Position numbers and translations under genes: made by a program | The notes under the pieces: model-generated | The model's input: only the letters and a program-made list of their open reading frames with translations | Database searches by the model: none | Told to the model about the DNA's origin: nothing | Shown: positions 2,346 to 3,264 of the stretch, in pieces | Layout: each line of letters starts with the position of its first letter | Numbering within the stretch: position 1 is the first letter of the stretch | Assembly (NCBI RefSeq): GCF_009931435.1 | Contig: NZ_CP043414.1 | Direction: 5' to 3' (one strand) | Source of the DNA: Escherichia coli | Lineage (GTDB): Bacteria; Pseudomonadota; Gammaproteobacteria; Enterobacterales; Enterobacteriaceae | DNA length: 64,000 nt

Positions 2346-3264
2346 GAATCTTGACCTTTTTTGCTGTTATCGCCACTCCCTGCCGTGGAAGTCAGCTTAG
2401 AACAATGTACTCCCCCAGGACGGCGTTTTGAAGGTCTGCAGAATAAGATTTTGCCAGAGGGGAAGACTCGATTGTGCTGTTAATAACTTAATAATGGCAA
2501 AATAATGAGGTGTATATGCTTAGTAATTAATGTTATGTAGTGAATTGTTCTGATTCTTAATTGTGAGTGTGGTTTTTTTATCTGTAAGATAATTGTTTGA
2601 AAATGCCTCGTTTAAGAATTCACTAATGAATCGTGATGATGATATTTCCGCATTACGGAGAGTTTAACAGCGTGATGATTTCCGAGGTGTCGTAATGGGT
2701 GCAAGGTGTGAAACTATTGTTAAGCGGGATTAATGAATGAGGATGATGCTAATTAATTATTATTTAATATTCAAAAAGGTTTTGTTGTGCTTATTAATAA
2801 TAGAAGATTACTTTGCCTAACATAACATAACTTTGCATCAGATAATTCGCAATGACCCTTATAAATAAAAGGTTTTTGGGGTAAAATGCTCGCATAAATG
2901 ACGGATCCCTGCTCTTGATGCCGCCTCACCATTGCTGTTTGTACGTGTTCGCGTATGACCAGCGATGCTGCACGAGAGTGGAACAAGGACTCACATTTAC
3001 ATTTATACAAACACGCGCATGTCATAAATACAAAAGAGTGAGTAACTTAATAGATATGCGATTCCTGAAGATATATTCTGTGATCTACTTCAGGCATTAT
3101 AACGGAACAATGTGAGTCGCTTTTTTAGTGCAACTCATATGCATTTTTACTTTCGTCCGGGTTCCGGATGAAACTGCCAGGGAGGCACATTACAAATGGA
3201 ATTGCTTGTTTGTGTGTGCACAGCATTAACCAGCTCAGTACGAGCCGCCAGTAAGTGATAATAT

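Follow-up and report, generated by a model that had tools for sequence, protein, structure and literature searches.

The question raised by this locus was what the long interval between alaA and lrhA contains. In the window (the whole 64,000-nucleotide stretch of DNA that was analysed), alaA occupies 1128–2345 on the minus strand and lrhA 3265–4203 on the plus strand, so that the CDS-free gap is 2346–3264, or 919 bp, which is exactly the interval given in a preliminary description of this DNA. That description had called the gap one of the longest intergenic stretches, and under the RefSeq annotation no other CDS-free gap in the 64 kb is as long, the next in length being those between yfaL and nrdA (695 bp) and between lrhA and nuoA (629 bp). 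The gap is free of RefSeq features in the identical strain Z0117EC0005, and likewise in a derivative of K-12 and in the curated record of MG1655, NC_000913.3. Our reading, to which we give a probability of roughly 0.9, is that alaA and lrhA are separated by a composite, divergent control region whose main parts have already been described for E. coli K-12.

The gap had a GC content of 0.383 (whole window, 0.512), and a composition this AT-rich was seen in only 4 % of 919-bp windows. The earlier wording ‘strongly AT-rich’ was therefore apt for the gap taken whole, but the composition was not uniform, with GC contents of 0.505 at 2346–2440, 0.322 at 2441–2893 and 0.426 at 2894–3264. The wording ‘gene-free’ was correct in that the gap holds no CDS, but it misleads, since 40 % of the gap (371 bp out of 919) belongs to the transcribed lrhA leader (5′ UTR). 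A search of the gap against Rfam gave no match, even at E-values up to 1. No intrinsic terminator-like sites were found within 2346–3264, and no tandem, terminal or mobile-element-like repeats were found in the gap.

All of the experimental data on this region come from K-12. The gap together with 100 bp on either side (2246–3364, 1119 bp) matched strain Z0117EC0005 at 100 % identity and K-12-type genomes at about 97.6 %. Over the 919 bp of the gap itself, identity to K-12 was 97.1 %, with 27 substitutions and no indels, so that K-12 positions convert directly to window positions. Nineteen of the 27 substitutions fall within a variable spacer (2454–2715), and single differences are found at 2893, adjoining the lrhA transcription start, and at 3241 (C here, T in K-12), 3 nt 5′ of the pairing site of the sRNA UhpU. 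This is the same locus as the K-12 lrhA–alaA spacer and lrhA 5′ UTR (Shimada et al., 2014; Bilusic et al., 2014; Melamed et al., 2023), with which it shares the context of the transcription start, the UhpU site, the core of a predicted RprA/McaS site and the sequence beneath a CsrA CLIP peak. Within the variable spacer, six substitutions were clustered in the seven bases at 2522–2528, which read AGTAATT here and TACATGC in K-12.

A scan for LrhA using one genome per species returned 80 loci, and the corresponding gaps were aligned with MAFFT. alaA was located divergently upstream of lrhA in 78 of the 80 loci (Enterobacteriaceae species), with a gap of 764–1140 bp that was mostly 900–1010 bp, and the AT-rich segment of the orthologues had a median GC content of 0.28–0.37. 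The alignment of the 78 species was divided as follows.

2346–2445: conserved; alaA promoter and leader.
2446–2705: poorly conserved; variable AT-rich spacer.
2706–2765 and 2826–2885: conserved; lrhA upstream block and promoter.
2886–3185: poorly conserved; 5′ part of the lrhA leader.
3186–3265: conserved; 3′ end of the lrhA leader.

The blocks conserved over the 78 species thus coincide exactly with the promoter and leader of alaA, with the upstream block and promoter of lrhA, and with the final 80 nt of the lrhA leader, a pattern that supports the model of a composite control region.

On the alaA side, four features were recognized.

2346–2397, minus strand: predicted 5′ leader of alaA, about 52 nt long, its start placed from the promoter.
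2373–2395, minus strand: conserved hairpin with which the alaA leader begins, its loop and closing sequence CUUCCACGGCAGG being invariant and its outer pairs covarying.
2404–2432, minus strand: predicted alaA sigma-70 promoter TTCAAA–17 nt–TACATT (reverse complements of 2427–2432 and 2404–2409).
2439–2453, no strand assigned: conserved box CAGAATAAGATTTTG, adjacent to the alaA −35 element on its upstream side.

The hexamers of the predicted alaA promoter were near-invariant in the 78 species and the 17-nt spacer between them was variable, a pattern that is the signature of a sigma-70 promoter. Transcription of alaA is predicted to start near 2397, about 7 nt downstream of the conserved −10 element, and the leader that follows (2346–2397) had an identity of 0.63–0.84 across the 78 species. 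Judged by its conservation, this promoter would drive alaA leftward through a leader of about 52 nt that begins with the hairpin. In the hairpin, which is unannotated, CUUCCACGGCAGG was invariant in 51 aligned Enterobacteriaceae species, and 88.7 % of cells were paired, against 34–63 % with slid partners; its 19 compensatory cells were reached by none of 500 shuffles. The hairpin may act in mRNA stability or serve as a protein or sRNA site. The box CAGAATAAGATTTTG is Lrp-like, agreeing with the consensus YAGHAWATTWTDCTR at 13 of 15 positions, a match that is not significant by itself (P=0.095 for the region); Lrp-dependent repression of alaA has reportedly been observed. Hexamers other than those given here were proposed for both the alaA and the lrhA promoters by Shimada et al. 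(2014).

On the other side, transcription of lrhA could be anchored to a published start.

2859–2887, plus strand: lrhA core promoter TTATAA (2859–2864)–17 nt–TAAAAT (2882–2887), recognized by conservation and ending 7 nt upstream of the published +1.
2894–3264, plus strand: lrhA 5′ UTR of 371 nt, with +1 at A2894 (Melamed et al., 2023, and the primer of their fusion).

An ‘unusually long’ 371-nt 5′ UTR was described for lrhA in K-12 by Melamed et al. (2023; eLife). The lrhA part of their PBAD-lrhA-lacZ primer begins ATAAATGACGG, which corresponds to window position 2894, and +1 was therefore placed at A2894 and the leader at 2894–3264; the start, as mapped in the K-12 literature, thus lies far upstream of the ATG. 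The core promoter was conserved as CTTATAAATA ... GGTTAAGAT/GGGTAAAAT in all of the sampled genera. In the proposed model, the promoter at 2859–2887 would start the rightward lrhA mRNA at A2894 with its 371-nt leader, as reported in the literature and at coordinates that were verified here.

The suggestion that the region could hide multiple promoters was borne out in the sense that two divergent promoters are present, one for alaA and one for lrhA, but a single +1, at −371, has been published for lrhA. We consider it unlikely that lrhA has an additional promoter, such as CTAACA–18 nt–GATAAT at 2817–2846, about 40 bp upstream of the known one, in which case a conserved box (AGATAATTCGCAAT) would be a −10 element and not a factor-binding site. 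This candidate matched the consensus at 9 of 12 positions in a promoter scan, its GATAAT falls in a block conserved across genera, and the estimate of about 1.5 kb for the long lrhA transcript is compatible with a start 40 nt further upstream. Against this, the scan found two promoter-like sites where 3.0 were expected from shuffles, the −35 element CTAACA was conserved only in Escherichia, Citrobacter and Salmonella, and the published work reports the one start.

Between the two promoters lies the most AT-rich part of the gap, which comprises two segments.

2454–2715, no strand assigned: AT-rich variable spacer, poorly conserved in sequence and conserved in length.
2716–2858, no strand assigned: conserved AT-rich lrhA upstream block containing ATTGTTAAG (2716–2724), ATTAATGA (2729–2736), AATTAATTATTATTTAATATT (2751–2771) and AGATAATTCGCAAT (2840–2853).

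The second segment is a putative lrhA upstream regulatory block whose motifs may be factor sites, as judged from their conservation; the block had a length of 178–180 bp in most species. A 24-nt direct repeat, TAATGAAT..GATGATG.., was also observed at 2624–2647 and 2731–2754 (79 % identity, 107 bp apart), the second copy overlapping the conserved motif ATTAATGA; the repeat may be either a binding site present twice or a product of chance.

RcsB reportedly represses lrhA, and LrhA is said to activate its own gene; both are presumed here to act on the middle segment, 2454–2893. Together with H-NS, Lrp, OmpR and CpxR, they would make this AT-rich DNA of about 440 bp a landing pad that sets lrhA transcription. 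H-NS strongly represses lrhA in BW25113 (PMC12968389), Lrp binds and activates lrhA according to ChIP-seq (bioRxiv 10.1101/276808), an OmpR ChIP signal is raised over the lrhA–alaA spacer (PMC3945435), and CpxR binds the lrhA promoter (PMC9387321), activation of lrhA by CpxR also having been published. Peaks of RpoD holoenzyme were detected by SELEX in the lrhA–alaA spacer by Shimada et al. (2014), who grouped this ‘920 bp-long lrhA-alaA’ spacer with csgD–csgB and nanC–fimB as long spacers with many factor-binding sites. The earlier proposal of a control region bound by nucleoid proteins and global regulators fits this literature on H-NS, Lrp, OmpR and CpxR, and with a GC content of 0.322 at 2441–2893, compared with 0.512 for the window, the segment is as AT-rich as a control region bound by H-NS or other nucleoid proteins should be.

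Consensus scans of the gap for H-NS, CpxR and OmpR gave no sites, with counts at or below the shuffle expectation, and those for Lrp and RcsB gave weak matches, one Lrp-like (P=0.095) and one RcsB-like (P=0.03, three mismatches). Helical phasing of AA/TT at 10.5 bp was absent in the window (P=0.38), and a weak bump was seen across the orthologues. A phased Lrp array, suspected from semi-conserved CTG motifs in the spacer, was dropped because the autocorrelation of conservation had no significant period (P=0.34).

H-NS typically silences foreign AT-rich DNA. The low GC content (0.32 over 2441–2893), the repression of lrhA by H-NS (PMC12968389) and an IS1 insertion breakpoint in the AT-rich DNA of one strain could therefore be taken to indicate that this DNA was left behind by horizontal acquisition or by a mobile element and is not native regulatory sequence. 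This is barely credible, given that the alaA(−)/lrhA(+) layout with a gap of about 850–1010 bp was found in 78 Enterobacteriaceae species, that at least 80 % of the region is present as a single piece in 5395 of 5426 complete E. coli genomes, and that the AT-rich part contains conserved blocks and has no terminal or tandem repeats.

The distance between the two promoters was conserved. Measured from the alaA −10 element to the lrhA −35 element (2404–2864), it had a median of 454 bp (IQR 449–457) in the 68 species with both anchors. The variable spacer (2454–2715) had a median length of 260 bp (IQR 256–264, 78 species) at an identity of about 0.35 to E. coli, whereas the 5′ part of the lrhA leader, which was as diverged as the spacer, was far more variable in length (IQR 311–355). 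A stable spacer length at about 35 % identity, compared with the variable length of the leader, suggests that the promoter spacing may be under constraint. The fixed distance of about 454 bp, with 260 bp of turnover between the promoters, hints at what might be a size-constrained nucleoprotein architecture.

Downstream of +1, the structure and conservation of the lrhA leader were compared across species, and the features obtained were as follows.

3151–3173, plus strand: leader hairpin UUUCGUCCGG–GUU–CCGGAUGAAA, recognized by covariation.
3254–3267, plus strand: ribosome-binding region AGUGA(A/U) with the lrhA start codon (ATG 3265), recognized by conservation.

The leader as a whole folded moderately better than shuffled sequences (z-score −2.25), and identity over 2906–3185 was 22–46 % across genera. 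The hairpin at 3151–3173 was compared in Escherichia, Citrobacter, Salmonella and Intestinirhabdus; paired cells made up 83 % of the total, against 31–55 % when the partners were slid, and its 13 compensatory cells were reached by none of 500 shuffles. RNAalifold gave no consensus structure for the last 130 nt of the leader in 76 species. The conserved motifs in the 3′ part of the leader, AAAUGGAAUUGC (3194–3205), CACAGC (3219–3224) and AGUGA (3254–3258), were therefore read as sites for trans-acting factors.

Published and predicted factor sites were then placed on the leader.

3149–3234, plus strand: CsrA-bound segment (CLIP-seq peak_226, K-12 2406671–2406757; PMC5694010 supplement).
3211–3227, plus strand: predicted RprA/McaS pairing site, complementary to UGCUGUGUGUA, which is shared by both sRNAs, with the core CACAGCA at 3219–3225.
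3244–3252, plus strand: UhpU pairing site GCCGCCAGU, placed from the published M1 mutant sequence and adjoining the ribosome-binding region.

UhpU represses an lrhA-lacZ fusion, and repression was lost with a point mutant and restored by the compensatory lrhA-M1 allele (Melamed et al., 2023). The lrhA-M1 gBlock reads GCCGC[C->G]AGU, i.e. C3249 is changed to G, and the site is intact here, so that the leader holds a pairing site validated by the compensatory rescue of that study. RprA and ArcZ were also found to repress lrhA, and McaS formed the most chimeras with lrhA and had no effect on its translation (Melamed et al., 2023); enrichment of lrhA by RprA in MAPS and the triggering of lrhA mRNA decay by RprA have been published as well. 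The CACAGC within the predicted RprA/McaS site was near-invariant in 76 species. Windowed duplex folding did not place an ArcZ site in the leader, with many near-equal sites being returned, and folding of whole sRNAs against the leader gave meaningless long duplexes and was discarded.

The CsrA-bound segment contains GGA motifs, including the conserved AAAUGGAAUUGC at 3194–3205, and in a csrA mutant the ribosome footprints on lrhA rose by log2 +1.0 and its RNA by +0.65 (PMC5694010 supplement). A second CsrA CLIP-seq peak (peak_225) lies outside the gap at about 4159–4262, over the lrhA stop codon and 3′ UTR, and the ‘primary’ lrhA 3′ end from Term-seq is at about 4234, upstream of a terminator-like hairpin at approximately 4250–4275.

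Taken with the sites above, the last 120 nt or so of the leader form a post-transcriptional hub, with CsrA bound at 3149–3234, RprA and McaS predicted to pair at about 3211–3227 and UhpU pairing at 3244–3252; ArcZ likewise represses lrhA, and lrhA mRNA depends on Hfq for its low level. Hfq is reported to co-immunoprecipitate leader fragments of 150 and 350 nt, and, according to published work, an hfq mutant accumulates a transcript of 1.5 kb together with a product of 1.25 kb. Two RNA 3′ ends have also been mapped within the leader.

2973, plus strand: RNA 3′ end at +80 (Term-seq, K-12 2406933; PMC7815308 supplement).
3215, plus strand: RNA 3′ end at +322, 50 nt upstream of the ATG (Term-seq, K-12 2406691; PMC7815308 supplement).

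The end at 3215 had a bicyclomycin ratio of 1.06 and is thus not Rho-dependent (Term-seq, PMC7815308 supplement); a literature search for lrhA with bicyclomycin found no paper. The size expected from this +322 end fits the Hfq-bound fragment of about 350 nt, and the leader would be cut or trimmed to give fragments ending at +80 and +322.

The preliminary description had also proposed that the gap could hide an sRNA, and these RNAs bear directly on that proposal. The 150-nt and 350-nt Hfq-bound RNAs from the interval were first listed as ‘ig-lrhA-alaA’, and the +80 and +322 ends were classed as ‘orphan’ by Term-seq, as might be expected of an independent sRNA gene with its own promoter and terminator. 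The Hfq-bound fragments are, however, collinear with the lrhA leader, and the probe that reveals them also detects the 1.5-kb mRNA; the +322 end agrees with a fragment starting at lrhA +1, and 2973 and 3215 are both downstream of that start. In addition, the gap contains no terminator-like site and has no Rfam match, and the first 290 nt of the leader were not conserved outside Escherichia. An independent sRNA gene is therefore very improbable, the gap offering neither an own promoter nor a terminator nor an Rfam match for one. The conservation and covariance analysis proposed for detecting an embedded sRNA gave no support for one: the body of the RNA was diverged, RNAalifold gave no consensus for the last 130 nt, and only one local hairpin covaries.

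It is doubtful that the leader is itself a source of regulators, either through its stable, Hfq-associated 5′ fragments (+1 to +80 and +1 to +322) acting in trans or through the full leader acting as a sponge for McaS; if this were true, the gap would be a locus for a 5′-UTR-derived regulatory RNA.

The two longest open reading frames in the gap were the following.

2918–3115, plus strand: ATG ORF of 65 codons, inside the lrhA leader.
2771–3025, minus strand: ORF of 84 codons, antisense.

The position of the 65-codon ATG ORF within the leader, with the 84-codon ORF antisense, raises the idea of an unannotated small protein, or of an upstream ORF by which the lrhA leader exerts regulation. In K-12, however, the 65-codon frame is interrupted by a stop; both ORFs were broken by stops in other sampled Escherichia and had no relatives in other genera, and RefSeq, including the curated MG1655 record, has no annotation in the gap; there is hence very little likelihood of such a product. 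These were the longest ORFs (65 aa on the plus strand and 84 aa on the minus strand) and neither was maintained, in agreement with the earlier statement that the gap holds only short spurious ORFs.

The net effect of this arrangement would be the integration of many signals, through transcription and through translation or stability, into the level of LrhA. This protein represses flhDC, the master operon for flagella, and affects type 1 fimbriae, RpoS translation and virulence genes; it has recently been reported to affect CRISPR-Cas expression. The region upstream of lrhA is a meeting point of envelope stress, nutrient, acid and motility signals, and the region provides a textbook case of layered control, with silencing and several transcription factors followed by CsrA, Hfq and sRNAs acting on a long leader.

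The csgD–csgB spacer, a divergent region of 755 bp with a large number of transcription factors and with several sRNAs, is likewise long, AT-rich and located upstream of a lifestyle master regulator. The csgD leader is targeted by several Hfq-dependent sRNAs, including RprA and McaS, and the lrhA leader is also a target of several such sRNAs, these two among them. In contrast to csgD–csgB, the divergent partner of lrhA is a housekeeping transaminase gene and not a functionally linked operon; the lrhA leader, at 371 nt, is also longer than that of csgD, and is a CsrA CLIP target too. The long leaders of rpoS and flhDC are acted on by Hfq-dependent sRNAs that include ArcZ and RprA for rpoS, and ArcZ and McaS for flhDC. 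All three genes (rpoS, flhDC and lrhA) thus have long leaders on which several Hfq-dependent sRNAs act, and LrhA belongs to the same motility/stress circuit. In rpoS, activation by the sRNAs comes about through the opening of an inhibitory hairpin, whereas in lrhA the tested sRNAs repress, pairing near the ribosome-binding site; no conserved inhibitory long-range structure was found in the lrhA leader by RNAalifold (last 130 nt, 76 species).

Everything essential about this locus, including the unusual length of the spacer, is already known for K-12. What is added here is modest: a base-level map in the coordinates of this strain; the conservation in 78 species of the layout, the long leader and the fixed promoter-to-promoter distance; and a small covarying hairpin in each of the alaA and lrhA leaders.

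Two further observations were made. In E. coli SCPM-O-B-12142 (NZ_CP144928.1, 3766–4620), the match to the region stops at about window position 2512 beside IS1, and the breakpoint is followed by elaD fragments and then by an IS5-like element; lrhA, the nuo operon, yfbM and yfbL (about 18 kb in the genome of this window) have apparently been deleted, up to elaD. Elsewhere in the window, at about 55.5–57.7 kb (NZ_CP098223.1 3172672–3174549), the RefSeq record of this strain shows several pseudogene fragments between inaA and glpQ, namely a partial CDS for a LysR substrate-binding domain and two hypothetical proteins, one frameshifted and the other partial.
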